From an uncultured Senegalimassilia sp. (GTDB taxonomy: Bacteria > Actinomycetota > Coriobacteriia > Coriobacteriales > Eggerthellaceae), in NCBI RefSeq assembly GCF_934636665.1, contig NZ_CAKUAT010000012.1, positions 19,470 through 83,469 on the forward strand: 64,000 nucleotides of DNA, written 5' to 3'. Made by a program: the position numbers and the translations under genes. The notes under the pieces are model-generated. The model made no database searches. It saw nothing but the letters and a program-made list of their open reading frames with translations, and had not been told where the DNA came from. This document shows, piece by piece, positions 3,808 to 61,560 of this stretch (its first letter is position 1; each line of letters begins with the position of its first letter).

Positions 3808-3823
3808 CCTATATAAAAAACTA

Positions 3824-25015: not shown

Positions 25016-25086
25016 TCGGCTATCTTATTAATTTCTATTGATGGATACACGGAATTTGCGTTGCGCAAAGAAGGGAAGATGCAAAG

Positions 25087-30763: not shown

Positions 30764-30818
30764 TCCCCTGTTCACCCTGTTCGCCTAGCGGAAACGATTG
30801 GAGGCAGGTGTGGCGGAA

Positions 30819-40566: not shown

Positions 40567-40883
40567 GACGAGCTCCTTCCGAGGGCGAGACGGGACAACC
40601 TAGGACGCAACAGGGAATGCGCAAATCGGCGGCAAATAGCATGAGCCACCACGCGCAGGGCGTCGCATATAAGGTTGTATGGGAAATCCGGAGCACGGCA
40701 GCTGCCCCGGCAACTCCTATAGGCGCAAGGCCTATCTGCCAGGAGGCGGGTCTCGCGACCCTCGGGTGCTAAAACAGTAGCACGCGCCAAAACAGCGCGC
40801 AAGTGGGAAGCTGGGAAATTTTAGGGGCGCCCGCTGTTCGCGTTCATGCCTGCGTCCGTGCTCGATGCTTGGGCCCGCGTCAT

Positions 40884-41360
40884 GCGACTTCTGGGCGGTT
40901 TTGCAGGCGGTTTTGGCTTGGAAGGGCGCGGGGCATCGGCATTTCCCCAGGTCGGCGATCCCTGTATCGTACCGCACTCGCGGAAAACCGCCCAGAAGCC
41001 CAGACTCATGGCAAAATCAGGGCTCATTTTCTGCAAAACCGTCCAGAAGTCGTGGGGTGCCGACATTGGGCATCGAGCGGTTGCGGTTGAGACCGATCCC
41101 CGGCGCCGATGCGCGCAATGGAAGGGCAGGCCTTGCCGGGGTCTCCGTCTCCGCGCTTTCGTTCGATGGGGCGATTTTGTTTGGTCATGCGTAGTTGGCG
41201 GGCTGATGGCGCGTTGCCGCAAGGCCGTTGTGGTGCTTTCGCTAAGAGCGATTGTGCGGGTGCGGTTCAGCGCCGACATCGTTGACCTGGGGAAACGCTG
41301 CTGCTTTGTGCTCTTTTGGACTCGAGCCGCCTGTAAAACCGCTCAGAAAATGAAGATGGG
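40884..41360. repeat. cluster of inverted/direct copies of the motif caaaaccgcccagaagtcg (40884-40906 reverse; 40983-41000, 41031-41057, 41328-41360 forward) within a 1.3-kb gene-free region
   Basis: Direct reading; related pair at 57116-57137 (reverse) / 57222-57252 (forward). Confidence 0.6.
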
Positions 41361-44016: not shown

Positions 44017-44263
44017 CTTCCTCGCCCCTTCTCTTCCTTATTCCGTGCCTGATTCCTGGCAGTTAGTGCTACGTCCCCAAATGTCTTGGTTGGGGGCGGT
44101 GATTTTTGTGCTCTCGTTTCCCCTGGTCAGGGGATGGTTCGTATATGCGTACCTAGTTGTTTTGGCGGGTTTTGGGGATGATGCAGGGTGGATTGGAAGT
44201 TTGTGCGCGCTGCGTCGGGGGCCTGTCGTCGCTGCGGGGCGCGCTGGCGGGAAGGAGTGCGGA

Positions 44264-47200: not shown

Positions 47201-50200
47201 AGCGTCTACGACGCCGGCATCGAGCTCCCGTCTTCCCAGGTCACAGCCATTACGGGCAACAAAGCCACGGTGTACGCGGCGCCTGATTCCCGCGTGGAAT
47301 TGGAGGTGGGCGGCAAGCGCTTCGCCGGCACGTGCAACAAGCTGGGTCGCGCTTCGATCGACTACGACGCCCCCGACAACCTGGTGCCGGGCCAGCGCGT
47401 GATGCTGCAGGCCTACCTTTCGGGCGCGCAGCAGCCGGCGGCCACGGCCTACGTCACCTACACGGGCGGCGCGTCCATCGAGCGTTTCGACGTGGTGACA
47501 CGCGGCAAAACGCAGCGGCTCATCGACAACGGCAAGGAAACGGAAGCGTTCGGCTACACGCTGCACCACGAGCGCACCAAGAAGAACGCCTACTGGACGT
47601 TCGCCATCACGCTTGATGCGCATGGTGCCCAGCTCGACGACGAGTTCAACTTGTACGTGGACTGCATCGACGGCCGCACGGTGACCATTCCCATGAAGAA
47701 GCGCGCGACCGACGGCGACCGCGTGCGCTTCGTGGGCGAGTACGTCGACCAGGCGTATCTGGACCTGCTGGCCGAGGACGAGGCGGCGGGCATAACCGGC
47801 GAGGTATGGCTTGGCGACATGAAAGGCCTGTTCATCCCCTCGTCCTACGGCGTGAGCAACTCGCTGCTCTCCGGCATGGCAACGGTGGACGCGAACGTGG
47901 TGGTGAAGAACATCGCGGAGCAAAGCACCCAGAAGGTCGACCAGATCAACGCGGTGCTGGTGGGCGACTTGACCGATCGCGACCAGTACGAGCAGCAGCA
48001 AAGCGACGAGTTCCGCAAAGATCTGCTTGACGCCGTGGCCGACGACCAGGAGCTGGCGGCTAGCCTGGCCGACGTGATGAACGAGCTGGGCGACAGTCAT
48101 GGCTACCTGACGGGCACCGCGGCCGATGAGCGCAACACGTTCTGGTACCAGGTGCTGCACGGCGACGGCGTGCTGGAATCCGACTGGTTCGCCGAGCTGT
48201 TCGGCGCCCAGTACGACGACCCCGAGGTGCAGGAGGGCGTCGACACCCTGCGTGACCTGGTGATCTCTCAGCACAACGACTTCGAGAAGTACCGCAAGGC
48301 CGTGGGCGAGGACCTGGGCGTGGGCGACCTTTCCCAGTATAACGACTGGGACGAGGTGTTCATCGCCTCGCTTGAGAACAACGTCGACGGCATCACCGTG
48401 AGCGACTTCGACGGCGACACTGCCGGCTTCACGGAGACGATCGACCAGGGCGGATACCGCGTGCGCACGCGCATGAGCGACGACGGCACGGGATTCAAGG
48501 CCATCGTCAACCTGCCCAGCGGCGCCGTGAAAACGCTTCAGGCGGACTTCGAGGACGCGGCGAAGAGCAACATAAAGCTGGCCACGATGCTGGATTCGGT
48601 GAACCTGGCCACGGACTTTGACAAGCAATGGGCGAACTTGGCGCTGCAGACCATTAAATCCAAGCCCGTGTTCAAGGCGATGCAGAAGTTCACATCGCCG
48701 ATGGTCAGGGGTCACCTGGCGGCATTTCTGCAGTATCAGGACACGTACCGCATGCCGTGGAAGTGGGCGAAGAACGTGCCGGTGTACTCGGGCGCCATCG
48801 CCTCGATCGGGCTGGGGACCAGCTACATCGGCGCGAAGGACGCGCTGAGCAACGCCGAGGACACCGAGGTGCGCCTGGCCGAGATGCGCGGCGAGGTGGA
48901 GCACATCGAGATGCTGATCCGCTGGTACTCCGGCAAGGGCGACATCGCGAACCTGAAGGAATGCCTCGAGGCGCTGAAAAACGAGCTGTTCTACGCGAAA
49001 CGCCTGGTGTCGCTGCTCGAGCAGCAGCGCGCTAACGAGTACGCCGATGCCGGCATCGGCGTGGTGATGGGCGGCATCGGCGCCGGCGCGACGCTGTTCT
49101 GCCCGCCCGCCGGCGCGATCTTGGTGTCGGGGATGTCCTATGGCTACGACGTGTCGTCGTCGATGGTGAACTCCGACCGCGCGAAGAACCTGTCTTGGGC
49201 GCAGCGCATGTACCAGCGCGCCGTGGCCGAGCGCTTGGAGAAGTGCCAGCCGGTCGAGGAGGAGATCGACCGCCAGCGCGAGAAGCGCCGCAAGGAGCTG
49301 AGCGAGATCGAGGCGCGGCTGGGCATCGACCCCTCAGGCTACGTGTACGAGGCGGTGAAGTCCAACCGGCTTGAGGATGTGACGGCCGAGGTGTGGTACA
49401 GCGCGTCGGCCGACGGCGCGGGCGTGGTGCCGTGGGACGCACAGTCCTACGAGCAGGTCAACCCACAGCCGACCGACGGCGACGGCGTGTTCGGCTGGTA
49501 CACGCCGGTAGGCTTCTACCAGGTGCGATTCACGAAGGCCGGCTACGAGGAGGCGCGCACGGAATGGATGGCCGTGCCCCCGGTTCGCACGGGGCTTGAG
49601 ATCGGGCTGCGCACCACCGAGAAACCGCAGGTGGAAAGCGCGCGGGCGTACACCGATTGCGTGGAGCTGACGTTCTCGCAGTACATGGACGCCTCCGACG
49701 CGTCGCTTGCCGAGCTGGCGGCGACCGGGCTGGGCGAGGGCTGCACGCTCGAGTGGGTCGGTCCCGAGGAGGGCGCCGATGGGCGGCAGGTGGCCAAGGC
49801 GCTGCGCATAAAGCCGGCGAAGGCGCTTGAGGCCGGGTCGACCGTGGAGCTTTCCCTGGCTGGCGCGGTGAACTACGCGGGCATCCCGATGGACGGTTGG
49901 AACAGCGGGCAGCTTGCGGTCGGTGCGCGCGCGGCGGAGCTGAAGCTGAACGTGGAGCAGGGGTATTCCCTGGTCACGGGGCAGTCGTGCGAGGTTTCAG
50001 CATACGTGCGCGACGCCTCCGGGCAGCCGTTGGCCGGGCAGTTGGTTGTCGCGAACGTGGGGAGTTCCGTGGTAGCCGGCCTCGGCGGCGGGCTTGAGAC
50101 GGCGAGTGGGGTGACCGACGCGGAGGGGCAGCTGGCGAATGCCGGCGCGGCGAGCGCGACGGCGGCCGGCCTTGGCGATGGGCTTGGAACGGTAAGCACC

Positions 50201-51106
50201 GCGACCGACGCCAACGGCGTTGCGCGCTTCACCCTGTCGGGAGAGGCGCCGGGTATGACCGACCTGACGGTGACGGTGGCCGACTCGCTGCTGGCCAAGA
50301 CGGTCGACGTGCGCGTGGCTGACGAGCAGACGCGCCCAACCCGCCCAACGGCGCAGCTGGGCGAGGCAAGCTTTGGGGCCGGTTCCCCGAAGGAGAACTT
50401 CGCCACGGTGAAGAAGGGCGCTCAACTGGTGATTTCCGCCGAGGAGGGGACCACGGTGTACTACACCACCGACGACACCTGCCCCTGTGTCGACGGCGGT
50501 TCGCGCACGGAATACACGGGCCCGGTGACGGTGAACGAGAACACCAGGTTCCGCATCGCGGCGTTCAAGGAGGGTTTGGAGAACGAATACTCCGAGCGCC
50601 TGAACATCACCGTGACGGTAACGGAAGGCGATGAGCCGGGAGGCGGCGAGCCGAGTGGCCCGGGCGGCGACGGCCCCGAGGGACCGGGCGGCGGTGAGCC
50701 TGGTGGCGAACCCGGCGGCGGCGAACCGGGTGGCGGCGATGGCCCGCAGGGGCCCGGCGGCGGCGAACCTGGTGGTGAGCAGCCGGGTGGAGAATCCGGT
50801 GGCGGTAGCGGTACCGGCGGAGCCGGTACCGGCGAAGGCGCAGGCGCCGGCACCGATGACGGTACGGGCGCTGGCGTTGGGGCCGACAACAACGGCGTCG
50901 ACGGAGATGCTGCCGGCAACGGCGATCAGCCGGTGCCGGGCAACCCGCAAGGTGATAAGCCCGCAGCAGCAACCAGCGCAGCAACCGGTGACGCAACGCG
51001 CGCAGCCGTGCCCCTCGCACTAGCCGCCGCAGCAGCCGCGGCCATGGCAGCAGCAGCGTTCGCCCACAAGCGCCAACGCACACCCCGCGGCAAACACCGC
51101 AGGTAG
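44264..51106 (+). CDS. giant cell-surface protein (~2280 aa): signal peptide, BspA-type leucine-rich repeats, Ig-like repeats, coiled-coil, Gly/Pro-rich GGEPGG region, hydrophobic C-terminal anchor
   Basis: Start MGVERR… after GGAAGGAG RBS; signal-like WRRGTAVALSCILAAGLVPVASF; LRR units …LSWGAFSGSQLQSIALPSSLETLNESVFQDCKKLQTV…; C-terminal AAAAAAAMAAAAFAHKRQRTPRGKHRR. Confidence 0.8.
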   Translation: MGVERRSRVGGYRPEMPLKRACASRSGARPWRVVWRRGTAVALSCILAAGLVPVASFVQGSETVAAARESLRANASGAADGGAGNADGAANGFAADGADGAADSADGGVLVVGSEVVAGGEGSAAVQGAQGSQNAHAGAGAASSAAGGLAGDAGGVSGYAVGNTADAADSANGRAAGGTGSAADPVVDSDSDPDADDPGPAPDYDGTEASYVYDEYYGEYFLATAKGVIGEKVADDVGYVAGAATPAQVWLTLNEETNELTVHHVDAGAVAFEVPATVDGRPITTVGGCGSSNLTSVTFPADSRVTRLSWGAFSGSQLQSIALPSSLETLNESVFQDCKKLQTVEWPKNNDMLKTIPAETFAGCSMLDDGVVASIPASVETIDYRAFASCSPDIYVSGETPEPFTEVNVPGTVKTIERYAFDGCAHVRSISIGDGVQTIGNRAFASMPLMAGAEVVLPATVSTVGQDAFDNTQITSSASGTEWKRNAVTLRVLNPDFELVEYEYGGTLEIDGKKYENPFSLGQSIVAFAKNSAGQPSWVKRAADAVAGQEDEHNPGKPAYTFQWMEESSQVTGKVPVGAQVALFQNGAATTAKVSADGTFTVEALSNTPATLQVSLEGCYDQVLTRAAEAMAGTWDVGELKTESFEKLPVQRLMNVNLRKQVGTGDDGAPAWETVLSDSGLAFELRQGDRVLREGEDADYVRQGLSVLLSQEVADAAKELTLTVTPDDSLALGAGEGRAMPADGAFDVDLRAWGGMKVTTKSAFSGSNDVMVFRNGACVATGLSDSAGELPISLDSLKAGEYTVIAVSHTSVDLRVPTLAAFDRLKLKEGVQYARADVQVEDGAQTQVALDVPVFDASAYLAQCGVMKQSGVVADRSAIVAGVEAQVRVSFNLDQERDAVLQLEMPEGDFSDITIGGTIGDESKQLPFTRNGDVVSVDLGGAQTGDLYVRFAAQRAGACTVNAALALGDAVLPLGAADMSVYDAGIELPSSQVTAITGNKATVYAAPDSRVELEVGGKRFAGTCNKLGRASIDYDAPDNLVPGQRVMLQAYLSGAQQPAATAYVTYTGGASIERFDVVTRGKTQRLIDNGKETEAFGYTLHHERTKKNAYWTFAITLDAHGAQLDDEFNLYVDCIDGRTVTIPMKKRATDGDRVRFVGEYVDQAYLDLLAEDEAAGITGEVWLGDMKGLFIPSSYGVSNSLLSGMATVDANVVVKNIAEQSTQKVDQINAVLVGDLTDRDQYEQQQSDEFRKDLLDAVADDQELAASLADVMNELGDSHGYLTGTAADERNTFWYQVLHGDGVLESDWFAELFGAQYDDPEVQEGVDTLRDLVISQHNDFEKYRKAVGEDLGVGDLSQYNDWDEVFIASLENNVDGITVSDFDGDTAGFTETIDQGGYRVRTRMSDDGTGFKAIVNLPSGAVKTLQADFEDAAKSNIKLATMLDSVNLATDFDKQWANLALQTIKSKPVFKAMQKFTSPMVRGHLAAFLQYQDTYRMPWKWAKNVPVYSGAIASIGLGTSYIGAKDALSNAEDTEVRLAEMRGEVEHIEMLIRWYSGKGDIANLKECLEALKNELFYAKRLVSLLEQQRANEYADAGIGVVMGGIGAGATLFCPPAGAILVSGMSYGYDVSSSMVNSDRAKNLSWAQRMYQRAVAERLEKCQPVEEEIDRQREKRRKELSEIEARLGIDPSGYVYEAVKSNRLEDVTAEVWYSASADGAGVVPWDAQSYEQVNPQPTDGDGVFGWYTPVGFYQVRFTKAGYEEARTEWMAVPPVRTGLEIGLRTTEKPQVESARAYTDCVELTFSQYMDASDASLAELAATGLGEGCTLEWVGPEEGADGRQVAKALRIKPAKALEAGSTVELSLAGAVNYAGIPMDGWNSGQLAVGARAAELKLNVEQGYSLVTGQSCEVSAYVRDASGQPLAGQLVVANVGSSVVAGLGGGLETASGVTDAEGQLANAGAASATAAGLGDGLGTVSTATDANGVARFTLSGEAPGMTDLTVTVADSLLAKTVDVRVADEQTRPTRPTAQLGEASFGAGSPKENFATVKKGAQLVISAEEGTTVYYTTDDTCPCVDGGSRTEYTGPVTVNENTRFRIAAFKEGLENEYSERLNITVTVTEGDEPGGGEPSGPGGDGPEGPGGGEPGGEPGGGEPGGGDGPQGPGGGEPGGEQPGGESGGGSGTGGAGTGEGAGAGTDDGTGAGVGADNNGVDGDAAGNGDQPVPGNPQGDKPAAATSAATGDATRAAVPLALAAAAAAAMAAAAFAHKRQRTPRGKHRR

Positions 51107-51168
51107 ATAGGGCGTTACAGCATCGAACGAATCGCCGCAGCGATGACAAGCCGCAGCACACGAACAAC

Positions 51169-51195
51169 GGCTGGCCTGCTTTCAGCAAGCCAGCC
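51169..51195. terminator. stem-loop ggctggcc-tgctttcagca-ggccagcc between convergent adhesin and vapC genes (no U-tract)
   Basis: Direct reading. Confidence 0.35.
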
Positions 51196-51216
51196 GTTGG
51201 CAGGAACCTCACCCCC

Positions 51217-51642
51217 CTAGCACAGCCTGAGCGATTCCCCGAGGTCGTTTCCGCATTCGACCATTTTCAAGCCGGGGATGCGGCGGAACAGGTCGGGCGA
51301 GCACGTGAGCAGGGTGGCGTCGTGGCGCATGGCCATGGCGGCGACGACGATGATGTTCGTGCCCGTGGGCGCGCCTGCCGATTCCAAATGTAAGCGGATG
51401 CGGCAATGCAGGTTGCAGCAGCTGGAATCGTACGGCACCTTTTCGAAGGGCAGCAGGAACTGGCGCACGATTCGCGTGTTGCGCTCGGCATCGCGGCTTT
51501 GCGCGGCGGCGATTAAAAGTTCGGACTCCACGACCACGGGAATGCCGAACCCAGTCGGAGCTATGGAGCGCATCGTCGCAGGTGAAACGGATATATCGCC
51601 GCGCAGCAAGCCAACGCAGGTGCTGGTATCCAAATAGATCAT
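51217..51642 (-). CDS. vapC: PIN-domain toxin VapC
   Basis: MIYLDTSTCVGLL… (conserved N-terminal Asp), PIN-like length; 4-nt overlap with upstream small gene. Confidence 0.7.
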   Translation of the reverse strand: MIYLDTSTCVGLLRGDISVSPATMRSIAPTGFGIPVVVESELLIAAAQSRDAERNTRIVRQFLLPFEKVPYDSSCCNLHCRIRLHLESAGAPTGTNIIVVAAMAMRHDATLLTCSPDLFRRIPGLKMVECGNDLGESLRLC

Positions 51643-51872
51643 CGCACGTGCCCCGCTTCCGCATCCAGCTTGCTCACGATGCGCACAGGCGTCTGGAACG
51701 TGTCGTCGTCGATGCTGCCGAACAGGCGCTCGAAGCCTGGCGGCCACTCGCTCACCGCAGCGTTGCGGATCAGCTCGGCAGCGCATTTCGAAAGCGATTT
51801 CCCGCCTGCTTGCGCCATGTCGCGCAAGGCGGCCATGGTCTCATCGTCCAAATACAAAGACAACTGCGACAT
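51639..51872 (-). CDS. vapB: VapB-type antitoxin
   Basis: MSQLSLYLDDETMAALRDMAQAGGKSLSKCAAELIRN (RHH/CopG-like); coupled to vapC. Confidence 0.6.
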   Translation of the reverse strand: MSQLSLYLDDETMAALRDMAQAGGKSLSKCAAELIRNAAVSEWPPGFERLFGSIDDDTFQTPVRIVSKLDAEAGHVR

Positions 51873-52036
51873 GCTTCCCCCTCTCGACGCCCCGGCGGTT
51901 TTGCCGCTGCGCGTGAAACGTTGCAAGCAGCATAGCCGAAGCGCGCGAGCCGAAGCGCGTAGGACGCGCAAAGCGCAGAAACTTCCCCGAGCTCGTATTG
52001 CGGTCAGGTGGTCGAATCGCGCCGCGAATGTGTGCT

Positions 52037-52185
52037 GCCGCCTGAAACTCGATACGTTTGTGTTTTAACTCGCTAAGGCCAAGTAGCGTAGTGGATGGCT
52101 CTAGCGTCCCCCCAGGTCAAAAGCATGTGCAAAAAAACGATAGAAACCTGATAGCCAGCAAAACACAAACGTATCGAGTTTTCGA
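52037..52185. promoter_or_regulatory. pair of 22-bp inverted repeats (aaactcgatacgtttgtgtttt / aaaacacaaacgtatcgagttt) ~100 bp apart, upstream of the reductase operon
   Basis: Direct reading at 52037-52058 and 52164-52185. Confidence 0.4.
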
Positions 52186-52394
52186 TCGCTGAGGGCAAAA
52201 GAACGGGGCGGGCCCTGCTGCGAGGGTTGCGCCTGCTTGCTTTGCGCGCATCCAAGTACAAAAGCAAGTACAGCCTAGCGGGGTACGCCGGGCGCCCGTA
52301 GAGTGCTTTTTGGCTTTGCGAGCGGCTTTTCGGGATGGCGAAACTCCCGCACGCACGCGGGGCTGAGGAAGGTTCTTTGGAGAGGAGAGAAACT

Positions 52395-54038
52395 ATGGAA
52401 GCAAAGGGAAAGGCCACGTCGCGCCGAAATTTCCTGAAGCTCGGCGGCATTTCCGCGCTGGGCGCGTTGAGCGCCGGCGCGCTTTCCGCGTGCGGCTATC
52501 AAGAGTACACGCCTTATGCCGACGGCGCCGTCGGCGTTGCGGGCAACGGCTCCACCACCGCCAGCGGGCTGCCGTCGTTCATGCAGGCGCCCGAGCCTAT
52601 CGCAAAGGTCGCCGAAACCGTTGATTGCGACGTGCTGGTCATCGGCGCCGGTGCGGCAGGCACCCCGGCGGCGCTGTCCGCGTCGGAAAACGGTGCGAAG
52701 GTGGTACTGCTGCAGAAGGAGCGTACGGCCATGTCGCACGGCAATTCCGCGGCAGGTTTGAACCTGGGCAAATGCGATCCGGCGGGCATCGAGCACTTGA
52801 TCTCGCTGGTGGTGAAGGCGAACCAGCACCGTTCGCATCGCGAGCTGGTCAGCAACTGGGCCTACAATTCCGGCGAGGCGCTGCACTGGTGCATCGACCG
52901 CATCAAGTCCGTCGACGGCCCCGTGTCCGATGACGGCAATCGCCAGCAAACCGCCACGCTCAACATCAACGGTTTCAAACTGGACTACGTCACGGCTTTC
53001 TTCGGCCCCAAGCCCTTCACCACCGGCGATGCCATGCAGTCGCTGGCGAAGGTGGCGGCCGCAAAAGGCGTGGATATCCGCTATTCCACGCCGGCGCGCC
53101 AGCTGGTCACCGACAAGTCCGGTGCGGTCACAGGTGCGATCGCTCAGCGTGAAGATGGCGAATATGTGCAGGTCAACGCCAAGAATGGCGTGATCATCGC
53201 GACGGGTGACTATTCCAATGACAACGAGATGGTGGACTACTACATCCCCGACTTGCACAACTTCGAGCGCAAGCAGAACAATCAGACCGGCGACGGCCAC
53301 AAGATGGGCATGTGGGTTGGCGCGGCCATGGAGCACATCGGCCATACCAAGATGCTGCACGACTTCGACGCCGGCCCGGCTTCCATGTGCGACATGCCGT
53401 TTTTGGCGGTGGCCGACAACACCGGCAAGCGCTTTGTCGACGAGACCGTGGAGATGAGCCTGCTGAACAATTACCTGCCCGATGGCAAGCACCCCGGCTG
53501 GTATTCCCAGGTCTTCGACGCGAACTACATGACCGACGCCGCCGCCTGGACGGGCAAGCTGGTCGACCCCGAGGGCCTGCGCGTGTACATGCCCGAGGAG
53601 GACGTCGAGCGCAAGGGCGTGTTTGCCGACCAGGTGCGCACGTTCAAGGCCGACACGCTCGAGGAGCTGGCGGTGAAGATCGGCCAGGATCCGGCGACGT
53701 TCGTGAAGACGGTCGAGGACTACAACACCTTGTGCGAAGCGGGCGCCGACACCGAGTTCGGCAAGGATCCGAAGTATCTGATCCCCGTCAAGCAGGCGCC
53801 GTTCTACGGCATCCATCGCCGCATGCGCTGCTCCACCATTTGCGCAGGTCTCGAGGTCAACGGCGAGAACCAGGCGCTCACGGCCGAGGGCGAGCCGATC
53901 GAGGGCCTGTACGTCATCGGCAACTGCGCCGGTAACTTCTATGGCGGCGTTGATTACCCGTTGGATATCTACGGGCTGTCGCTGGGCCGTTGCGTGACCG
54001 CCGGCTACGTGACCGGCCGTGCATTGGCGCAAAAGTAG
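52395..54038 (+). CDS. Tat-exported FAD-binding flavoprotein reductase (fumarate reductase/urocanate reductase flavoprotein family; Cgr2-like paralogue)
   Basis: Twin-arginine signal SRRNFLKLGGISALGA; dinucleotide-binding DVLVIGAGAAG; C-terminal GLYVIGNCAG; start at MEAKGK after GGAGAGGAGAG. Confidence 0.85.
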   Translation: MEAKGKATSRRNFLKLGGISALGALSAGALSACGYQEYTPYADGAVGVAGNGSTTASGLPSFMQAPEPIAKVAETVDCDVLVIGAGAAGTPAALSASENGAKVVLLQKERTAMSHGNSAAGLNLGKCDPAGIEHLISLVVKANQHRSHRELVSNWAYNSGEALHWCIDRIKSVDGPVSDDGNRQQTATLNINGFKLDYVTAFFGPKPFTTGDAMQSLAKVAAAKGVDIRYSTPARQLVTDKSGAVTGAIAQREDGEYVQVNAKNGVIIATGDYSNDNEMVDYYIPDLHNFERKQNNQTGDGHKMGMWVGAAMEHIGHTKMLHDFDAGPASMCDMPFLAVADNTGKRFVDETVEMSLLNNYLPDGKHPGWYSQVFDANYMTDAAAWTGKLVDPEGLRVYMPEEDVERKGVFADQVRTFKADTLEELAVKIGQDPATFVKTVEDYNTLCEAGADTEFGKDPKYLIPVKQAPFYGIHRRMRCSTICAGLEVNGENQALTAEGEPIEGLYVIGNCAGNFYGGVDYPLDIYGLSLGRCVTAGYVTGRALAQK

Positions 54039-54137
54039 CAGACACGACGGGGTATACCCGCCTGACCTGCGGTTTCCGATGATGTGAACAGTGAACGGGA
54101 GCGCGCAACACACCCGTTTCGCGAAAGGATGACGAAA

Positions 54138-54809
54138 ATGAGTGACAACACCGAGAAGGCCGGCGCCACGGCCGAGCCCGCGCCGAAGAAGGGCGGCGCC
54201 AAGCGCGGCCGCATCGTGGCCGCCGTGGTGGTCGCGGTGATCATCGTGGCCGGCTGCGGCATGTTCGCCTGGCATAACAGCCCCAGCTTCTGCGGGACCG
54301 TGTGCCACACGCCCATGAGCAAGTACGTTGCCGATTTCGAGGCCGGGCCGGTCGACGGCGGCAGCACCGCTATGCTGGCAGCCTATCACGGCGCCGACGC
54401 GGATATGAACTGCCTGAGCTGCCACGAGGCCAAGATCGACGAGCAGGTGACCGAGGGCATGAGCTGGGTTTCCGGCAACTACAACTTCGATTCCGACACG
54501 CAGGTGCTCGAGAGCCGTTCCGGCGAGCTGCCGACGGCCGAGTTCTGCCTGAAGAGCGGCTGCCACGATAGCATCAACACCGTCGACGACTTGACCGCCG
54601 CCACGGCAGATCGCGAGTTCAACCCGCATGATTGGAGCCAGCACGGCGTTGTGGCCTGCGGAAACTGCCACAAGGCCCACGAGACCAGCGAGTTCTACTG
54701 CACGCAGTGCCACCTGGATGCCACGTACTCCAGCGTGCCAAACGGCTGGAACGTCGTCATCGACGGCACCACCTACAAGATGAACAACGGCCAGCTGGTC
54801 GAGCAGTAA
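54138..54809 (+). CDS. membrane-anchored multihaem cytochrome c (NapC/NirT/Cgr1-like), 5 haem motifs incl. one CX4CH
   Basis: N-terminal TM helix; CGTVCH, CLSCH, CLKSGCH, CGNCH, CTQCH. Confidence 0.85.
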   Translation: MSDNTEKAGATAEPAPKKGGAKRGRIVAAVVVAVIIVAGCGMFAWHNSPSFCGTVCHTPMSKYVADFEAGPVDGGSTAMLAAYHGADADMNCLSCHEAKIDEQVTEGMSWVSGNYNFDSDTQVLESRSGELPTAEFCLKSGCHDSINTVDDLTAATADREFNPHDWSQHGVVACGNCHKAHETSEFYCTQCHLDATYSSVPNGWNVVIDGTTYKMNNGQLVEQ

Positions 54810-54898
54810 GCGAGCAGCAGGGAAGCGATAAGCAAGCGATAAACGAGCAGGTAGCGGCTTCAAGGGCCACGCGCTAGCCGAAGTTTTGCGAGCAGGAA

Positions 54899-54928
54899 GC
54901 GGGTCGCGTCTTGGACGCGGCCCGCTTT
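54899..54928 (+). terminator. GC-rich stem-loop gcgggtcgcgtc-ttg-gacgcggcccgc + tttgcg after the cytochrome gene
   Basis: Direct reading. Confidence 0.45.
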
Positions 54929-55188
54929 GCGTTGCCGGGAGCGCCGGCGAGGGTGTGGGCTTACGCTAGCGGTTGTGATTCGCGAAAAGTCGGTCGCGAC
55001 CGGCGGCGAGGCCCCGGACGCCGGCGGGGCGGAGCGGCGCGGGCTTGCGCTAGCGGTTGCGATTCGCAAGAAGGCCGCAGGTGGTGATGGGGTCGCGACC
55101 GGCGGCGAGGCCCCGGACGCCGGTGATATCGCGTAAAGGCTGCTTGCTACGGAGGGGCGCTGGCGACAGCGGACGTAGGGCGCTCCCG

Positions 55189-56244
55189 CTAGCTCACGCA
55201 CGCCACGTGCAGGACGTCGCCGTCCACGGTGAAGGCGACGTCCAAGCCCGCGTAGGTCAGGTGGTAGACGCGGGTCGGCTCGTGTTTACTGCCAGCGCGG
55301 CGCGGGTCCTGGCGCAGCACCTCCGTCAGGCCGGGCAGCTTGCCGGCGGGCACTTCGGCCTGCAGCTGCTCGGGAAAGTCCACGTCAAGCTCGTGCCAGG
55401 GCGCGTCCTCTATCCATCCGCCGCACGCGTCGGGGTGGCAGTCGGCGAAGGGGATGTAGGGCTTGATGTCGTAGATGGGCGTGCCGTCGCGCAGGTCCGC
55501 GCCGAGCACGTGGATGACAGGGCCGGCGTCGGTGAGCTCCACGCGATCGAGCTTCACGCACGTCAGCCCGATGGGGTTCGGGCGGAACGGGCTGCGCGTG
55601 GCGAACACCCCCACGCGCTCGGCGCCGCCCAGCCGCGGCGGCCGCACAGTAGGCGACCAGCGCGCGGGTTTGCGGGAGGCGGCGGTGTTTGCGCTGGTGG
55701 CGGGGGCGGTTTTGCTTCTTTCCGCCCCTGCGCCCACTCGCTCGCCGCTGGCGATATCGGCGACGGGCGTATTCTCCCTTGCCGGGGCGGAGGCGGATTC
55801 GATGGCGTTTCCGGATCCGCTGTCTTTGGCAGCGATTTCGGTCTTGCAAGCGGCGGTACCGGGGGCGGCGATGATTGCGGTCTTGTTAGCCGCTGCGCCT
55901 TTCGATGCGCTGTCGCTGGCAATATCGCCGGCGCCTCCGGCAGCGGCCGTTTCGCTGCCGACGCTATCGGACGTTCCCTTTCCCTTTACGATAGGGGCTT
56001 CGGCCTCGCTCCCGCTCACCCGCCCGCCGGCGGCGACGTCGGCGGCGCCTCCGCCGGGTTCGCCGTTCTCGAAACGCCAGAGCAGCCACAGATGCGAGAA
56101 GCTGTCGATCCCGGCAACGGCGCTGTTCAGCGCGTATTCCGGCTCGAACACGATACGTCCTTGCAAATGCGGCGCAAGGAAGCTGTTGCGGGGGATGCCG
56201 AACTTCTGCGGCAAATCGGTATGTATGTGAGCGATAGGTTTCAT
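55189..56244 (-). CDS. TsaA/TrmO(YaeB)-family tRNA methyltransferase-like protein with a ~150-aa Ala/Gly/Ser-rich low-complexity insertion
   Basis: MKPIAHIHTDLPQKFGIPRNS…FSHLWLLWRF (N-half) and C-half …NPIGLTCVKLDRVEL… separated by a repetitive linker. Confidence 0.6.
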   Translation of the reverse strand: MKPIAHIHTDLPQKFGIPRNSFLAPHLQGRIVFEPEYALNSAVAGIDSFSHLWLLWRFENGEPGGGAADVAAGGRVSGSEAEAPIVKGKGTSDSVGSETAAAGGAGDIASDSASKGAAANKTAIIAAPGTAACKTEIAAKDSGSGNAIESASAPARENTPVADIASGERVGAGAERSKTAPATSANTAASRKPARWSPTVRPPRLGGAERVGVFATRSPFRPNPIGLTCVKLDRVELTDAGPVIHVLGADLRDGTPIYDIKPYIPFADCHPDACGGWIEDAPWHELDVDFPEQLQAEVPAGKLPGLTEVLRQDPRRAGSKHEPTRVYHLTYAGLDVAFTVDGDVLHVACVS

Positions 56245-56389
56245 GCGCGCTATTGTATCGCGGCGCGCTGCGCCCGGCCGCGCCGCTCGCCGAAGGGTTC
56301 GCGGCATTTGCGTTGGATTCTGCCGGCATTTACTACTATGAAAGTATCAAATGCGGCGCCTGGCGCTGCACTCGGCGAAGGAGGCATTC

Positions 56390-56920
56390 ATGGCGGATTC
56401 GAAGCGGCTGTTGGCGGATGCGCTCACGGGCCTGATGGAATGCAAGCCGCTCGACCAGGTGCGCGTGGCCGAGATCGCCGCCGCGGCCGGCGTGAGCAAG
56501 CAGACCTTCTATCACCACTTCTCCGACAAGTATCACCTGATGGAGTACTGTTTCCGCGACATGTTCGCCGCCCCTTTCGAGCGGATGGGGACGCTTGCGC
56601 CCTTCGACGAGTGCTACATCGAGTTCCTCCAGCTGTGCCATGAGCGCAAGACGTTTTTGCGCAACGCCTTCACCTCCCAGGACGTGAACAGCCTGTACCG
56701 CGTGATGCACCATGCGCTGCGCGACGCGTACGGCCGGCGCGTGCGCGTGTTCGGCGTGCTCGATGAGGGGGAAATGGGGTTTTGCCTGGACTTCTTCTCG
56801 AAAGGCTGCGCAGGCTGCACGCGCCATTGGTTCGACCAGGGCATGGACTTCGAGGACGCCGAGTTGGTAGGCCTCATCCGCCAGTGCATCCCCGTAGGGG
56901 TTGCAAGGTTTTTCGAGTAG
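56390..56920 (+). CDS. TetR/AcrR-family transcriptional regulator
   Basis: N-terminal HTH VRVAEIAAAAGVSKQTFYHHFSDK. Confidence 0.8.
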   Translation: MADSKRLLADALTGLMECKPLDQVRVAEIAAAAGVSKQTFYHHFSDKYHLMEYCFRDMFAAPFERMGTLAPFDECYIEFLQLCHERKTFLRNAFTSQDVNSLYRVMHHALRDAYGRRVRVFGVLDEGEMGFCLDFFSKGCAGCTRHWFDQGMDFEDAELVGLIRQCIPVGVARFFE

Positions 56921-56968
56921 CCGGCCCTCCGTGGGCATTCCGTTGTCGCCTGTGTAGCCGACGCCCCT

Positions 56969-56997
56969 CGTGAACAGGGGACGGAGGTGCGTTCACG
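56969..56997. repeat. single-unit copy of the palindromic element (cgtgaac-aggggacggaggtgc-gttcacg) after the TetR gene
   Basis: Direct reading. Confidence 0.7.
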
Positions 56998-57115
56998 CGC
57001 GGATCGTGCGAGCATTTCCACAGCCCTCTTTGCGCGTGCTATACCCGGGGCTGATTGCCGCCGCCGGTCGACTTCTGGACCGTTTCGCAGGTTTTGGCCC
57101 TCGTTTTCCCTCTGA

Positions 57116-57252
57116 AAACGCACTTCTGGGTGGTTTTCCGCGTCATTTTTCGCGTTCGCCAAATATGTCGCAAGAAAACCCCTGTTCAGGAAAATCCCAA
57201 TCATACGCTTATGATTTTGCAGCCTGCAAAACCGCCCAGAAGTCGCGGGGGT
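57116..57252. repeat. inverted pair of the caaaaccgcccagaagtcg motif (57116-57137 reverse, 57222-57252 forward)
   Basis: Same motif family as 40884-41360. Confidence 0.6.
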
Positions 57253-57569
57253 GCGGTTAGCGGGGGCATGAACACGCCCTCAGCACGAAACTACGCGGCA
57301 AACAAGTTGACGAAATATCAGAAAAGTAAAGCGCACCCTTTACAAAACACCGCTTAGGTCCATTCCTCCCACAATTCACGCTTCCTATAATCCTCCCTCG
57401 TAGGGTCGAGCGCGCATAGGGCGTTTGCTCGAGGCGCCCGCGAAGCTTCGCGCTTTCGCCGGGGCGCACGTTGCCCGCCTGCTCCGAAGGGGGCTGCGAA
57501 CCGACGCGCCGAATCGCGTTGTCACTGCGGCAAAACAGCAGGCAGGCGCAAGCGAGAGGAAGGAACAAC

Positions 57570-59354
57570 ATGGACAAATCCGGAATCAGCCGCCGTAGCT
57601 TCCTGACCGGTGCCGCTGCCATCAGCGCGGCGCTTGCCGGCGCGGGCCTGACGGGCTGCGCTCCGAAGGTGGTCGGCGTTGCGGGCGGTGCCGCAGGCGC
57701 GGCCGGCTCGGGCAACGGCCAGACGATGGGCTTCGACGGAACGGGCGCCATGCCGTGGCTCGGCGAGGCGCCGTCTATCTCCGACAGCGACGTGGCCGAG
57801 ACGCTCGATGCAGACGTCGTGGTCGTGGGCCTTGGCTGCGCGGGCGTTCCCGCAACGCGCGCGGCTGCCGAAGCCGGCGCGAAGGTCATCGCCATCGAGG
57901 CGTCCGCCCAGCTCAACAGCGTGGCCAGCGACATGGCCATCCTGGGCGGCGAGACCATGGCCAAGTGGGAGCGCGGCGACGGCTTCCTGGACAAGCGCAT
58001 GGTGGTCAACATGCACATGGAGGAGGGGAGCCACCACTCGAACTTCGGCATCATCAGCCGTTATTGCGACGAGTCGGGCAAGGCGCTCGACTGGTTCGTC
58101 AAGGGGTGCCCGGACATGTACATCGCATCCGAAAGCTACGAGGAGGTCCCCGAGGCCAACCGCGCCCACTACCTGTACCCGTACTTCTATCCCATGCTGG
58201 AAACGTACGACTACACGAAAGAGGACATGCCGTGCTACCCCACGTCGGTGGGTTTCTCCAGCCTGGCCACGGCCATGGCCGATAACCTCAAGCGCGCCCA
58301 GGAGGCCGGCGCCGAGGTTCGCTACAACACGAAGGGCGTGAAGCTCATCACGGCCGATGACGGCAGCATCGCGGGCATCTACGCGCAGGACACCAGCGCG
58401 GGCAAGTACCTGAAGATCAACGCGAAAAGCGTCATCCTGGCCACGGGCGACTATCTGGCCAACGAGGACATGATGAAGTACTTCGCCCCCGCGTGCATCG
58501 AGAACGGCAACCAGATCCTGTCGCTGGACCTGGACGCGCAGGGCAACTACACCAACGTCGGCGACGGCCACAAGATGGGCGTGTGGGCCGGCGCGGCGGT
58601 GGAGCAGTGGCATGCGCCGATGATCCACCACATGGGCGGCGGCGCCGGCTCCGACGGCCGCGGCGTCATCGGCAACAACGGCTTTCTGTGGCTGAACCTC
58701 CACGGCAAGCGCTTCATGAACGAGGACGTGCCTGTTCAGCAGCTTGAGAACCAGGTGGAGCTCCAGCCGCAGCGCAAGGCCTACCAGTTCTTCGACAGCT
58801 CCTGGCCCGAACAGCTCAAGTACTTCCCGGCCGCCCACGGCATCGCCTGCATCTACAAGGACGAGGCGCTGCCGGACTGGACGCCGTCGGGCCTGAAGAT
58901 CAACGTGCGCTGCCCGGCCGACATCGAGGCCGCCGTGGCCGAGGGCCGCTGCCTGAAGGCCGACACCATCGACGAGCTGCTGGCGAAGATCGACGGCATG
59001 AACGCCCAGGTGGCGAAGGAGTCCATCGAGCGCTACAACCAGCTGGCGAAGGCCGGCTCCGACGAGGACTTCGGCAAGAGCAGCCAGCGCATGTTCGCCC
59101 TGGAGAACGGCCCGTTCTACGCCGCCGAGTGCGGCGTGGCGCTCACGTTGGCGAACCTGGGCGGCCTGGAATCCGACAGCGACTGCCACGTGTACAACAC
59201 CGAGCGCGAGGTGATCTCCGGCCTGTACGCGGCCGGCGCCCCGCAGGGCGGCCGCTTCAACGTGCAGTACCCCATCTCGCTCAAGGGCCTGTCCGCCGGC
59301 ATGTGCATGGTGTTCGGCAAAATCGCAGGCGAGAACGCCGCGGCGGGCAAGTAG
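57570..59354 (+). CDS. second Tat-exported FAD-binding flavoprotein reductase (paralogue of 52395..54038)
   Basis: SRRSFLTGAAAISAALAGA Tat signal; VVVVGLGCAGVPA dinucleotide fold; conserved GDGHKMG(M/V)W(V/A)GAA block shared with paralogue. Confidence 0.85.
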   Translation: MDKSGISRRSFLTGAAAISAALAGAGLTGCAPKVVGVAGGAAGAAGSGNGQTMGFDGTGAMPWLGEAPSISDSDVAETLDADVVVVGLGCAGVPATRAAAEAGAKVIAIEASAQLNSVASDMAILGGETMAKWERGDGFLDKRMVVNMHMEEGSHHSNFGIISRYCDESGKALDWFVKGCPDMYIASESYEEVPEANRAHYLYPYFYPMLETYDYTKEDMPCYPTSVGFSSLATAMADNLKRAQEAGAEVRYNTKGVKLITADDGSIAGIYAQDTSAGKYLKINAKSVILATGDYLANEDMMKYFAPACIENGNQILSLDLDAQGNYTNVGDGHKMGVWAGAAVEQWHAPMIHHMGGGAGSDGRGVIGNNGFLWLNLHGKRFMNEDVPVQQLENQVELQPQRKAYQFFDSSWPEQLKYFPAAHGIACIYKDEALPDWTPSGLKINVRCPADIEAAVAEGRCLKADTIDELLAKIDGMNAQVAKESIERYNQLAKAGSDEDFGKSSQRMFALENGPFYAAECGVALTLANLGGLESDSDCHVYNTEREVISGLYAAGAPQGGRFNVQYPISLKGLSAGMCMVFGKIAGENAAAGK

Positions 59355-59363
59355 GAGGCTGCC

Positions 59364-60131
59364 ATGACCGGTAAGAACAAGGTTACGGAAACCGTTTCCG
59401 CAGATGAGAAGGTTGATGGCGCGAGTGCGGGCGCGGCTGGCGCAGCGGGCGCGACCCCGTCGCCCAAGCGTGGACGCCGCAAGGTGACGGCGGTCGTGGC
59501 CACCGTGGCCGTGGTGCTGATGGCGGCGGGCGCGGGCTTCATGGTCTGGCATGATTCGCCCAGCTTCTGCAACGCGATCTGCCACACGCCCATGGACGGC
59601 TACCTGACCACCTACGAGTCCACGCCGGGCGAGGCCGCCACGGACAAGTGGGGCAACCAGGTCGCCGACGCGTCCAGCATGCTGGCGCCGGTGCACGCCC
59701 AGGAGGGCATCACGTGCGTGGGCTGCCACGTGCCGCAGATGTCCGAGCAGGTCACCGAGGGTTTTGGCTGGCTGACCGGCAGCTACAGCGTCGTGCAGAC
59801 CGCTGACGAGCGCTTCGTGCCTGAGGAGAAGTCGCTGTCCGACCTGACCGCGGCGCGCGGCATCGCCAGCGAGGCGTTCTGCCTGAACTCTGGCTGCCAC
59901 GTCAACGACGACGGCTCCAACATGACGCGCGACGACCTGGCGGAGAAGACCAGCTACATGAAGCGCAACCCGCACGTGCAGGAGCACGGCGAGGTCGCCT
60001 GCAGCGAGTGCCACAAGGCGCACCGCGCATCCACCGTGTACTGCAGCAAGTGCCACAGCGACGCCACCATCCCCGATGGCTGGATCAGCTACAAGGAAGC
60101 CGAGGCCCTAGAGCCCACGGCAGTCGAGTAG
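59364..60131 (+). CDS. second membrane-anchored multihaem cytochrome c (5 motifs incl. CX4CH)
   Basis: CNAICH, CVGCH, CLNSGCH, CSECH, CSKCH; N-terminal TM helix. Confidence 0.85.
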   Translation: MTGKNKVTETVSADEKVDGASAGAAGAAGATPSPKRGRRKVTAVVATVAVVLMAAGAGFMVWHDSPSFCNAICHTPMDGYLTTYESTPGEAATDKWGNQVADASSMLAPVHAQEGITCVGCHVPQMSEQVTEGFGWLTGSYSVVQTADERFVPEEKSLSDLTAARGIASEAFCLNSGCHVNDDGSNMTRDDLAEKTSYMKRNPHVQEHGEVACSECHKAHRASTVYCSKCHSDATIPDGWISYKEAEALEPTAVE

Positions 60132-60178
60132 GGAAGAAGCGCGCCGCCGAGCGTGCTGTGAGCCCACCCCGCTTGCAA

Positions 60179-60211
60179 GCCCCTGCCGGGATTCTCGGCA
60201 GGGGCTTTTTG
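60179..60211 (+). terminator. rho-independent terminator gcccctgccg-ggattctc-ggcaggggc-ttttt
   Basis: Perfect 10-bp stem plus U-tract. Confidence 0.7.
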
Positions 60212-60217
60212 CTGCCA

Positions 60218-60246
60218 GGCGAACAGGGGACGGAGGTGCGTTCGCG
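60218..60246. repeat. single-unit copy of the palindromic element (gcgaac-aggggacggaggtgc-gttcgc)
   Basis: Direct reading. Confidence 0.7.
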
Positions 60247-60396
60247 CTCATTCACCTTTGCCATCTAATCGTTACCGTGAGCGTTGCGATTTCTCCGGTA
60301 AACGGCGGGCTTTAGCGTTACACTGACTGCAGCTGTAACGCTGCGGGCTTCGCCAAGGGGAACTGCTGAGTCCGCTCATGTAAAGGGGGTGCCGCC

Positions 60397-61560
60397 ATGG
60401 CGGTCAATCGTTTCGTGCTCAACAACATCTCGTATCACGGCGCCGGCGCGATCGGGGAGATTCCCGGCGAGATCACGCGCCGCGGTTTTGCGAAGGCGTT
60501 CGTGTGCTCCGACCCTGACCTGGTGAGATTCGGCGTCACGGGCAAGGTGACGGCCAAGCTCGACGAGGTCGGCATCCCGTGGGAGCTTTACGACCAGATC
60601 AAGCCCAACCCCACCATCAAGAACGTGCAGGACGGCGTGGCTGCGTTCAATGCTTCCGGCGCCGACATGATCGTGGCCGTGGGCGGCGGTTCGGCCATGG
60701 ACACCGCCAAGGGCATCGGCATCATCGCGGAGAACCCCGAGTTCGCCGACGTGGTCTCGCTCGAGGGCGTGGCGCCCACGAAGAACCACGCCACGTTCAC
60801 CATCGCCGTCCCCACCACGGCGGGCACGGCGGCCGAGGTCACCATCAACTATGTGATCACCGACCCGGAAAAGGTGCGCAAGTTCGTGTGCGTCGACGTC
60901 AACGACATCCCCGATGTGGCGGTGGTCGACCCCGACATGATGGCCAGCATGCCGGCGGGCCTGACCGCGGCCACGGGCATGGACGCGCTCACGCACGCCA
61001 TCGAGGGCTACACCACGAAGGGCGCGTGGGAGCTGTCCGACATGTTCCACCTGAAGGCCATCGAGCTGATCTCGAAGAACCTGCGCGCGGCGTACGCCGA
61101 GGCGAAGTCGGGCGAGCCGGGCGCCGGCCGCGAGGGCATGGCGCTTGGCCAGTACGTCGCCGGCATGGGCTTCTCCAACGTCGGCCTGGGCATCGACCAT
61201 GCCATGGCGCACACGCTGTCGGCGCACTATGACACGCCGCACGGCGTGGCGTGCGCAATGCTGCTGCCGGTGGCCATGGAGTTTAACAAGCCGGCGTGCG
61301 CCGAGCGTCTGGTCGACGTGGCGCACGCCATGGGCGTCGACGTTGCGGGTATGAGCGCGGAAGAGGCCGCCGATGCCGCCATCGCCGCCGTGCGCCAGCT
61401 GTCCGCCGACGTGGAGATCCCGCACACCTGCAACGGTCTGGTGGCGGAAGACCTCGAGCAGCTGGCAACCGACGCTATGGCCGACGCCTGCTTCCCGGGC
61501 AATCCCCGCGAAGCCGACCACGCCCAGGTGGTCGACCTGTTCCGCAAGGTGATGGCGTAA
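60397..61560 (+). CDS. iron-containing (group III) alcohol dehydrogenase (FucO/DhaT-like)
   Basis: GGGSAMDTAKG, metal-binding His pattern …HAIEGYTT…GLGIDHAMAHTLSAHYDTPHG. Confidence 0.9.
   Translation: MAVNRFVLNNISYHGAGAIGEIPGEITRRGFAKAFVCSDPDLVRFGVTGKVTAKLDEVGIPWELYDQIKPNPTIKNVQDGVAAFNASGADMIVAVGGGSAMDTAKGIGIIAENPEFADVVSLEGVAPTKNHATFTIAVPTTAGTAAEVTINYVITDPEKVRKFVCVDVNDIPDVAVVDPDMMASMPAGLTAATGMDALTHAIEGYTTKGAWELSDMFHLKAIELISKNLRAAYAEAKSGEPGAGREGMALGQYVAGMGFSNVGLGIDHAMAHTLSAHYDTPHGVACAMLLPVAMEFNKPACAERLVDVAHAMGVDVAGMSAEEAADAAIAAVRQLSADVEIPHTCNGLVAEDLEQLATDAMADACFPGNPREADHAQVVDLFRKVMA

Follow-up and report, generated by a model that had tools for sequence, protein, structure and literature searches.

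Here we describe a 64,000-nucleotide stretch of a contig from an uncultured Senegalimassilia sp. (NZ_CAKUAT010000012.1, positions 19,470 to 83,469; hereafter the window), which carries two gene pairs, each consisting of a gene for a flavin adenine dinucleotide (FAD) reductase followed on the same strand by a gene for a membrane-anchored multihaem cytochrome c. The host belongs to the Eggerthellaceae and resembles Senegalimassilia, the nearest loci being those of an uncultured Senegalimassilia metagenome-assembled genome (98% identity) and of 'Eggerthella sp. AM16-19' (97%). Genes were called from a listing of open reading frames (ORFs) together with Pfam and NCBIfam scans of the window proteins. 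An original prediction, made from the DNA letters and their translations, had proposed two flavoprotein–cytochrome operons with a TetR gene and a TrmO-like gene between them; the ORFs and the Pfam matches, PF00890 and PF14537 for the two pairs, bear out both statements. We consider it likely that each pair makes up a terminal respiratory reductase that is complete in itself and of the 'split flavocytochrome c' type. The genes concerned are as follows.

52395–54038, + strand: Flavo1, FAD reductase of 547 aa, PF00890 (first gene of pair 1, 52395–54809)
54138–54809, + strand: Cyt1, membrane-anchored pentahaem cytochrome c of 223 aa, Cgr1 family, PF14537
55189–56307, − strand: TrmO-like tRNA methyltransferase gene, 372 aa, with a low-complexity insert
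56351–56920, + strand: TetR-family regulator of 189 aa, TetR_N and TetR_C_8 domains
57570–59354, + strand: Flavo2, FAD reductase of 594 aa, PF00890 (first gene of pair 2, 57570–60131)
59364–60131, + strand: Cyt2, membrane-anchored pentahaem cytochrome c of 255 aa, Cgr1 family, PF14537

The PF00890 scores of Flavo1 and Flavo2 are 127.5 and 115.6 bits, against a gathering cut-off of 20.4. In pair 2, 9 bp separate the Flavo2 stop from the Cyt2 start; in pair 1, the Cyt1 reading frame is open from 54084 and offers an alternative ATG at 54129. The two operons had been called paralogous, which is true at the superfamily level. With 29% identity between Flavo1 and Flavo2 and 39% between Cyt1 and Cyt2, however, the pairs are only distantly related and not recent paralogues.

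Cytochromes and flavoproteins of the two pairs

Both cytochromes carry five haem motifs in the same order: CGTVCH, CLSCH, CLKSGCH, CGNCH and CTQCH in Cyt1, and CNAICH, CVGCH, CLNSGCH, CSECH and CSKCH in Cyt2. This is a CX3CH-CXXCH-CX4CH-CXXCH-CXXCH pattern (3-2-4-2-2), so that the CX4CH motif originally recognized at the equivalent position of both proteins stands, but the count of four CXXCH motifs must be corrected, the first motif being CX3CH. Both non-canonical forms are rare yet documented haem attachment motifs (PMC11492766), and haem would be attached at both sites here. We found the pattern in 111 of 120 close homologues; among full-length representatives of clusters at 50% identity, 41 of about 80 share it, and the third site is CXXCH in another 16. 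This is a small family, with 347 representatives (E ≤ 1e-3) in a search space of 1.84 billion proteins, and proteins named Cgr1 by NCBI (P0278, P0325) show 3-2-4-2-2 as well; the pattern is a signature of the whole Cgr1 family. When 66 diverse full-length relatives were aligned, the ten cysteines and five histidines of the motifs were all invariant. So were H111, H204 and H220, with M77 conserved in 98%, H63 in 95% and H208 in 65%, a set of histidines and methionine from which axial ligands would suffice for five haems.

The third motif can be placed by means of the small tetrahaem proteins encoded beside Flavo1 orthologues in other phyla (see below). In a MAFFT alignment these proteins match motifs 2–5 of Cyt1 and Cyt2, with the CX4CH standing opposite an ordinary CXXCH across a two-residue gap. 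Because the tetrahaem partners align there, and because 16 cluster representatives have CXXCH at that position, we take the CX4CH to be a true haem position. The same alignment argues that it is an old feature of the anchored forms rather than something specific to this locus; it is found family-wide in anchored pentahaem partners from several phyla, and the suggestion that it is a speciality of these two operons therefore falls. The CX3CH first site, by comparison, is restricted to Coriobacteriia.

As to their relatives, Cyt1 and Cyt2 both have the N-terminal membrane helix, PF14537 domain and motif order of Cgr1-type cytochromes. Against the NCBIfam Cgr1 model (NF051471) they score 181.8 bits (E 1e-53) and 309.8 bits (E 7e-93), respectively, below the curated equivalog cut-off of 340 bits, yet both are clear homologues. 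These scores and the Eggerthellaceae host bear out the original reading of both operons as Cgr1/Cgr2-type. An accompanying likeness to NapC/NirT survives in the predicted fold but not in the sequence. Neither cytochrome matches the NapC/NirT model PF03264 (Cytochrom_NNT) at E ≤ 0.01, although a few relatives and the partner from the Bacteroidota (Maribellus) match this N-terminal model weakly. The AlphaFold2 model of the cytochrome (pLDDT 81.8; helix at residues 38–63, preceded by a basic stretch) contains a NapC/NirT-type fold, a membrane helix with a compact tetrahaem bundle, and its closest structural match is NrfH. When the family profile was compared with the Protein Data Bank (PDB), the sole match was the haem domain of Shewanella flavocytochrome c3 (Fcc3; E 5e-6), with motifs 3–5 falling on Fcc3 haems 2–4, and Foldseek returned the same match. 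Sequence and fold together fit an NrfH-like membrane helix and first haem joined to an Fcc3-like four-haem wire.

The flavoproteins begin with twin-arginine translocation (Tat) signals, SRRNFLK in Flavo1 and SRRSFLT in Flavo2, and at the end of each lies a lipobox that had gone unmentioned (LSAC and LTGC, respectively). R10 and R11 are invariant in the Flavo1 family, as R8, R9 and C30 are conserved in that of Flavo2. Since a Tat motif (S/T-R-R-x-F-L-K), a hydrophobic stretch and a lipobox (L-x-[AG]-C) can all be read in the sequences, both flavoproteins are predicted to be Tat-exported lipoproteins.

Their active sites were compared with those of Fcc3 and of the urocanate reductase UrdA in pairwise and family-profile alignments. 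The reference Arg/Arg/His triad is R402, R545 and H504 in Fcc3 and R411, R560 and H520 in UrdA. At the Fcc3 R402, R545 and H504 positions, Flavo1 has M354, an aspartate (threonine in the family consensus) and S480, and Flavo2 has a valine (glycine in the consensus), S570 and a threonine; the equivalent of H365 is the only active-site residue kept in either. Tight clustering with true fumarate reductases, fumarate-binding residues conserved, had been named at the outset as what would refute the prediction, and neither flavoprotein keeps those residues. Because the triad is replaced, we conclude that Flavo1 and Flavo2 are not fumarate reductases, and the substrates of both pairs are very probably neither fumarate nor urocanate. 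In both families, an invariant tyrosine sits in a [D/Q]-Y-P motif beside the R545 position. Little et al. (10.1101/2022.12.26.521950) describe cinnamate-reductase clades 2–4 that lack the two arginines and have a conserved tyrosine instead; we liken the two cases by description and do not assume that the positions are equivalent. In the NCBIfam scan no equivalog cut-off was reached by either flavoprotein. TIGR01813 (flavo_cyto_c) gives 141.5 bits for Flavo1 and 130.4 for Flavo2 against a cut-off of 285, and the top model for both, vinyl phenol reductase VprA (NF053717), gives 153 and 161 bits against 600; both are only distant relatives of VprA.

Proposed electron path, substrates and rival explanations

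The model we propose takes as directly established the gene order, domain families, motifs, homologies and synteny, and follows one already put forward for Cgr1/Cgr2 (PMC5953540) and for Eggerthellaceae reductase arsenals (10.1101/2022.12.26.521950). The cytochrome would be held in the membrane by its single N-terminal helix, with the haem domain outside the cell. Its membrane-proximal haem, at the CX3CH within the block WHxxPSFCxxxCHTPM, would take electrons from menaquinol, as NrfH and CymA do, and the remaining four haems, which make up a homologue of the Fcc3 tetrahaem chain, would pass them to the FAD of the partner flavoprotein. The latter, exported folded through Tat and tethered at the membrane surface by its N-terminal lipid, would then use the FAD to reduce a C=C bond in an organic acceptor. 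What we infer is that haem is attached at the CX3CH and CX4CH sites, that quinol is oxidized, that the two proteins form a complex, that the flavoprotein is lipidated and that catalysis runs in this direction.

For pair 1, the distribution of orthologues offers a hint of the substrate. The Flavo1 family yielded 270 genome hits, at 51–60% identity in Shewanella, Geomonas, Geothrix, Holophaga, Desulfobulbia, Bacteroidota and Pirellulales. In most of 80 loci with Flavo1 orthologues a cytochrome gene lies directly downstream, its type varying with lineage.

Proteobacteria and most Acidobacteriota: Sec-exported tetrahaem protein of 113–158 aa, pattern 2-2-2-2
Syntrophia, Bacteroidota, Pirellulales and some Acidobacteriota: anchored pentahaem protein of about 195–230 aa, pattern 2-2-4-2-2
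Coriobacteriia having a partner: anchored pentahaem protein, pattern 3-2-4-2-2
Raoultibacter, Paraeggerthella and Rubneribacter: no downstream cytochrome

We scanned the neighbours of these orthologues against Pfam. Regulators included LuxR proteins (13 loci, all in Coriobacteriia), XylR_N/V4R sigma-54 'activators of aromatic catabolism' (nine loci) and AraC proteins (five loci), and OprD porins occurred in 11 loci. Esterases were represented by BD-FAE (two loci), carboxylesterases (two), alpha/beta hydrolases (four) and, in one Maribellus locus, a PF00756 esterase with CBM48 that adjoins a rhamnosidase-like gene. In two Shewanella species, sp. KJ2020 (L052) and HN-41 (L076), a 578-aa tannase/feruloyl esterase gene (PF07519, E 8e-127; at about 2768–4504) lies directly upstream on the same strand, followed by the Flavo1 orthologue and its tetrahaem partner. 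This set may be a three-gene unit that releases a phenolic acid and then respires it, and orphan flavocytochromes of Shewanella, for example so_1413/1414 or so_3623/3624, may be the counterparts of the Flavo1 orthologues there. The esterase and XylR neighbours of these distant orthologues hint that the substrate is an aromatic compound set free from an ester, for instance a hydroxycinnamate or the vinylphenol formed from one. That VprA is the top NCBIfam model for both flavoproteins, although at scores well short of its cut-off, is a further hint. We therefore tentatively regard a plant-derived phenolic alkene (hydroxycinnamate, vinylphenol or similar) as the most likely substrate class of pair 1, while holding any such assignment to be doubtful.

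For pair 2, the nearest named relative of Flavo2 is a very prevalent 'FAD-binding protein' of Adlercreutzia equolifaciens (74% identity). Flavo2 orthologues at 73–76% identity have a LuxR gene adjacent and no cytochrome, and in an orthologous locus at 89% identity (L089) the TetR–Flavo2–Cyt2 trio is retained in an unrelated neighbourhood. Because the trio recurs in this way, the TetR protein is probably the regulator of pair 2, which would be induced through it.

Several observations weigh against this picture of two cytochrome-fed alkene reductases. Koppel et al. (2018; PMC5953540) did not obtain haem-loaded Cgr1. No cytochrome gene adjoins the close orthologues of the two flavoproteins in Adlercreutzia, Raoultibacter and Paraeggerthella, so the cytochrome is not obligatorily encoded beside the reductase. 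The substrate hint comes from neighbourhoods in distant phyla, at 51–56% identity, and in a superfamily whose specificity shifts quickly, cinnamate reductases having evolved four times (Little et al., 10.1101/2022.12.26.521950). Finally, both flavoproteins match NCBIfam models of 3-ketosteroid dehydrogenases (KstD) at about 80–125 bits.

We weighed four alternatives, of which three seem to us about equally improbable. The cytochromes might serve generally as electron relays or docking proteins supplied by some other membrane complex, rather than act as quinol dehydrogenases, with their pairing to the reductases incidental. The many orthologous reductases that lack an adjacent cytochrome would then be expected, and a Cgr1 homologue of 92% identity in the Eggerthella lenta core genome has been proposed to have a general role (Koppel et al., PMC5953540). 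What makes this unlikely is that the N-terminal helix and first-haem block are conserved across phyla, with the Bacteroidota member matching the NapC/NirT N-terminal model and the cytochrome fold matching NrfH, and that the cytochromes have diverged in step with the reductases, Cyt1 and Cyt2 each tracking its own reductase clade.

The enzymes might instead be oxidative or act on steroid ketones, as KstD-like desaturases or 3-oxo-steroid ene-reductases that have bile acids or steroids as substrates and are connected to the quinone pool by the cytochrome. Gut Eggerthellaceae are known transformers of steroids and bile acids, and loss of the carboxylate-binding triad suits a carboxylate-free substrate. 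KstD chains in the PDB are matched at E 1e-11 to 1e-27, but the scores against the NCBIfam models are far under the family cut-offs of 675–940 bits, the neighbours of Flavo1 orthologues point to aromatic esters instead of steroids, and a low-potential multihaem donor would suit reduction more than oxidation. We give this explanation little weight.

A third explanation, similarly hard to favour, concerns Flavo2, which we can liken by description, not by sequence, to the stilbene (resveratrol) reductase RER of E. lenta. RER is an FAD-binding protein with homologues of at least 56% identity in Adlercreutzia, Raoultibacter, Slackia and Gordonibacter, and A. equolifaciens, the source of the 74%-identical relative of Flavo2, is among the few gut strains known to metabolize resveratrol (10.1101/2024.03.10.584274). 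Resveratrol, moreover, has no carboxylate, consistent with the missing triad. Against this, Eggerthellaceae genomes carry tens of such reductases (10.1101/2022.12.26.521950), so that a chance assignment is unlikely to be right, and the Raoultibacter homologues of Flavo1 fit the description of RER equally well.

A great deal less probable still is a fourth explanation, in which the flavoproteins truly reduce fumarate, urocanate or another 2-enoate anchored by its carboxylate: the top PDB sequence matches are indeed the Shewanella flavocytochrome c3 fumarate reductases and UrdA, and relatives are named 'fumarate reductase' by some database sources, but the missing triad and the TIGR01813 scores at under half the cut-off indicate that this explanation is already largely refuted. 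We thus retain the split flavocytochrome c reading for both pairs.

Repeats and gene turnover around the pairs

Repeats had been noted upstream of both operons. They are present, but they are not of the same kind, the one upstream of pair 2 being a dispersed element of mobile type, related in form to miniature inverted-repeat transposable elements (MITEs) or repetitive extragenic palindromes (REPs). Together with a duplicated block behind Cyt1, the intergenic features are as follows.

52045–52066 and 52160–52181: arms, 93 nt apart, of a perfect 22-nt inverted repeat (AAACTCGATACGTTTGTGTTTT), upstream of Flavo1
52254–52275, + strand: conserved box AAGTACAAAAGCAAGTACAGCC, in which AAGTACA is directly repeated; it lies upstream of Flavo1, about 120 bp from the start
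54952–55123: intergenic duplicated block between Cyt1 and the 3' end of the TrmO-like gene, copies 84–99 nt apart, including a 33-nt exact repeat
57058–57256: MITE/REP-like element, about 200 bp long and bounded by terminal inverted repeats (CGACTTCTGGRCGGTTTTGCAG), the motif of which recurs a third time inside

No 22-nt inverted repeat would be expected by chance. This one is strain-variable, present in two related loci (L009, L012) and absent from two others (L010, L011), and might represent either paired operators or a small insertion. The box AAGTACAAAAGCAAGTACAGCC is invariant amid diverged flanks in orthologues of at least 87% identity, which makes it a candidate regulator or promoter site. 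The element upstream of Flavo2 lies within an insertion of about 430 bp between the TetR gene and Flavo2. A second copy, with the same terminal inverted repeats (CGACTTCTGGRCGGTTTTGCAG) and internal third motif, occupies window positions 40860–41080, where about 1.3 kb separates a ClpP gene from an unannotated ORF. Since this copy lies 16 kb away and the insertion is missing from the 89% orthologous locus, we rejected the repeat as an operator and regard it as a dispersed MITE-like element. A scan of 51000–61000 against Rfam returned no RNA family, and nothing in a promoter and terminator scan exceeded the shuffled background.

The junction between Cyt1 and the TrmO-like gene differs among strains, other strains having an extra reductase cassette there. 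In a sister strain from the same sample (L001), a large surface-protein gene, a PIN gene pair (both described below), Flavo1 and the 5' part of Cyt1 are all lost. Aligned to window positions 54543–55178, L001:1698–7596 retains a 72-aa Cyt1 remnant, followed before the TrmO-like gene by a different cassette of a cytochrome (− strand), a LuxR regulator (− strand) and a 578-aa flavoprotein (+ strand). L010 and L011 contain pair 1 plus at least the cytochrome of an L001-type cassette. The L001 arrangement argues that reductase cassettes are gained and lost at this junction.

The genes around the pairs can be described briefly. The TrmO-like gene is a bystander and is unlinked to Flavo2 in the 89% orthologous locus; an insertion of about 130 aa, rich in Ala, Gly and Ser and of low complexity, splits its TrmO_N domain, and strains differ in how long the protein is (351 versus 372 aa). 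An iron-containing alcohol dehydrogenase gene (60397–61560) follows Cyt2 by 265 bp in all strains of this species (L001–L003), but a functional link to pair 2 is doubtful because the gene is absent behind the 89% orthologous pair (L089). Directly before the Flavo1 regulatory region, at 51217–51971, a PIN-domain toxin gene overlaps a small upstream ORF, likely as a toxin–antitoxin pair, and is kept in L009–L012. Further upstream, an ORF of 2353 aa (44045–51106) encodes a surface protein with a Gly/Pro/Glu-rich tail and a C-terminal hydrophobic anchor, its counterpart in an identical strain matching LRR_5, Big_1 and Fn3_assoc; it appears to be a strain-variable insertion, since it is absent from the otherwise syntenic L001 and L010. 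At about 12–26 kb (12000–26000) the GC content of the window is 46–54%, against 60–67% elsewhere. Positions 38414–39883 encode a type IV secretion coupling protein (T4SS-DNA_transf/TraG), and the large ORFs at 30798–34562 and 34546–36714 have no Pfam match. This combination suggests an integrative conjugative element beside the reductase island.

Wider meaning and comparison with known systems

In gut Eggerthellaceae, dozens of reductases of this kind alter drugs, phenolics from the diet and metabolites of the host, and two are added here. Our analysis corrects the haem pattern, ties anchored pentahaem cytochromes to the small tetrahaem partners in split flavocytochromes, shows how broadly the pair 1 family with its plant-phenolic neighbourhood signal is distributed, and brings out the TetR-linked three-gene unit of pair 2. 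The haem pattern may have a bearing on why Koppel et al. failed to produce Cgr1 heterologously, and it indicates which sites to check in such attempts.

Taken together, these results allow a broader and still more speculative reading, which we think somewhat unlikely to be right in full. Pair 1 would be the Gram-positive form of a respiratory module for plant-phenolic alkenes that lacks the triad and spans phyla (Shewanella, Geomonas, Geothrix, Holophaga, Desulfobulbia, Bacteroidota, Planctomycetota and Coriobacteriia), and the Cgr1-type cytochrome would be a distinct pentahaem class. Such a class may combine a quinol dehydrogenase with a tetrahaem relay, marked by a non-canonical CX4CH in all anchored forms and, in Coriobacteriia only, a CX3CH on the quinol side; if so, special handling by the cytochrome maturation system may be needed. 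Because conservation of the pair 1 family reaches from Shewanella as far as gut Coriobacteriia, often near feruloyl or tannase-type esterases or aromatic sensors, one assay panel could annotate hundreds of genes, possibly including the orphan Shewanella flavocytochromes.

Among known systems, Mrd/Mcc of Geobacter sulfurreducens AM-1 and FccABC of Wolinella succinogenes resemble the two pairs in being operons of a Tat flavoprotein and a multihaem cytochrome c that reduce unsaturated acids outside the cytoplasm (PMC4427408). Mcc, however, is a different cytochrome from Cyt1 and Cyt2, soluble, Sec-exported and with up to seven CXXCH motifs, and methacrylate reductase Mrd/Mcc was rejected as a model for pair 1 because of this soluble seven-motif partner.

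With NrfH, CymA, NapC and NirT, the window cytochromes share a single N-terminal membrane helix, a first haem motif directly after it and a conserved methionine next (CHTPM in Cyt1 and Cyt2). In NrfH the first haem motif is CXXCHXM. They differ in having five haem motifs rather than four, the first being CX3CH and the third CX4CH, and in lacking a PF03264 match.

The Shewanella flavocytochromes c3 (FccA/Fcc3, Ifc3) and split flavocytochromes c (so_3056/3058, so_3300/3301) have a homologous flavin domain and a tetrahaem domain or subunit with which motifs 2–5 of Cyt1 and Cyt2 align, and Flavo1 orthologues in Shewanella are followed by a tetrahaem subunit of 114–131 aa. In the window, by contrast, the haem protein is separate and membrane-anchored, with a fifth haem and two non-canonical motifs, the catalytic triad is missing, and a separate quinol dehydrogenase of the CymA type would be unneeded.

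The reductase arsenals of Eggerthellaceae (10.1101/2022.12.26.521950) are likewise made up of extracytosolic PF00890 enzymes, inducible, narrow in specificity and variable among strains; pair 2 differs in using a TetR regulator where the arsenal usually has a transmembrane LuxR type.

Closest of all in architecture is Cgr1/Cgr2 of E. lenta (Koppel et al., 2018; PMC5953540), a Tat-exported PF00890 flavoprotein with a membrane-anchored PF14537 cytochrome, and Cyt2 comes near the NCBIfam cut-off for Cgr1 (309.8 versus 340 bits). Judged by the description of Koppel et al. and by the NCBIfam hits, Flavo1 and Flavo2 are probably not orthologues of Cgr2: the nearest homologues of Cgr2 are less than 28% identical to it (PMC5953540), the best NCBIfam hits of both flavoproteins include no Cgr2-like family, and no Fe–S motif is evident in either, whereas Cgr2 has [4Fe-4S] cluster(s) and critical cysteines. 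Regulation differs too, with LuxR there and here TetR (pair 2) or no adjacent regulator (pair 1). Both pairs are nonetheless further members of the known Cgr-type machinery, the architecture and likely mechanism of which were proposed before for Cgr1/Cgr2.

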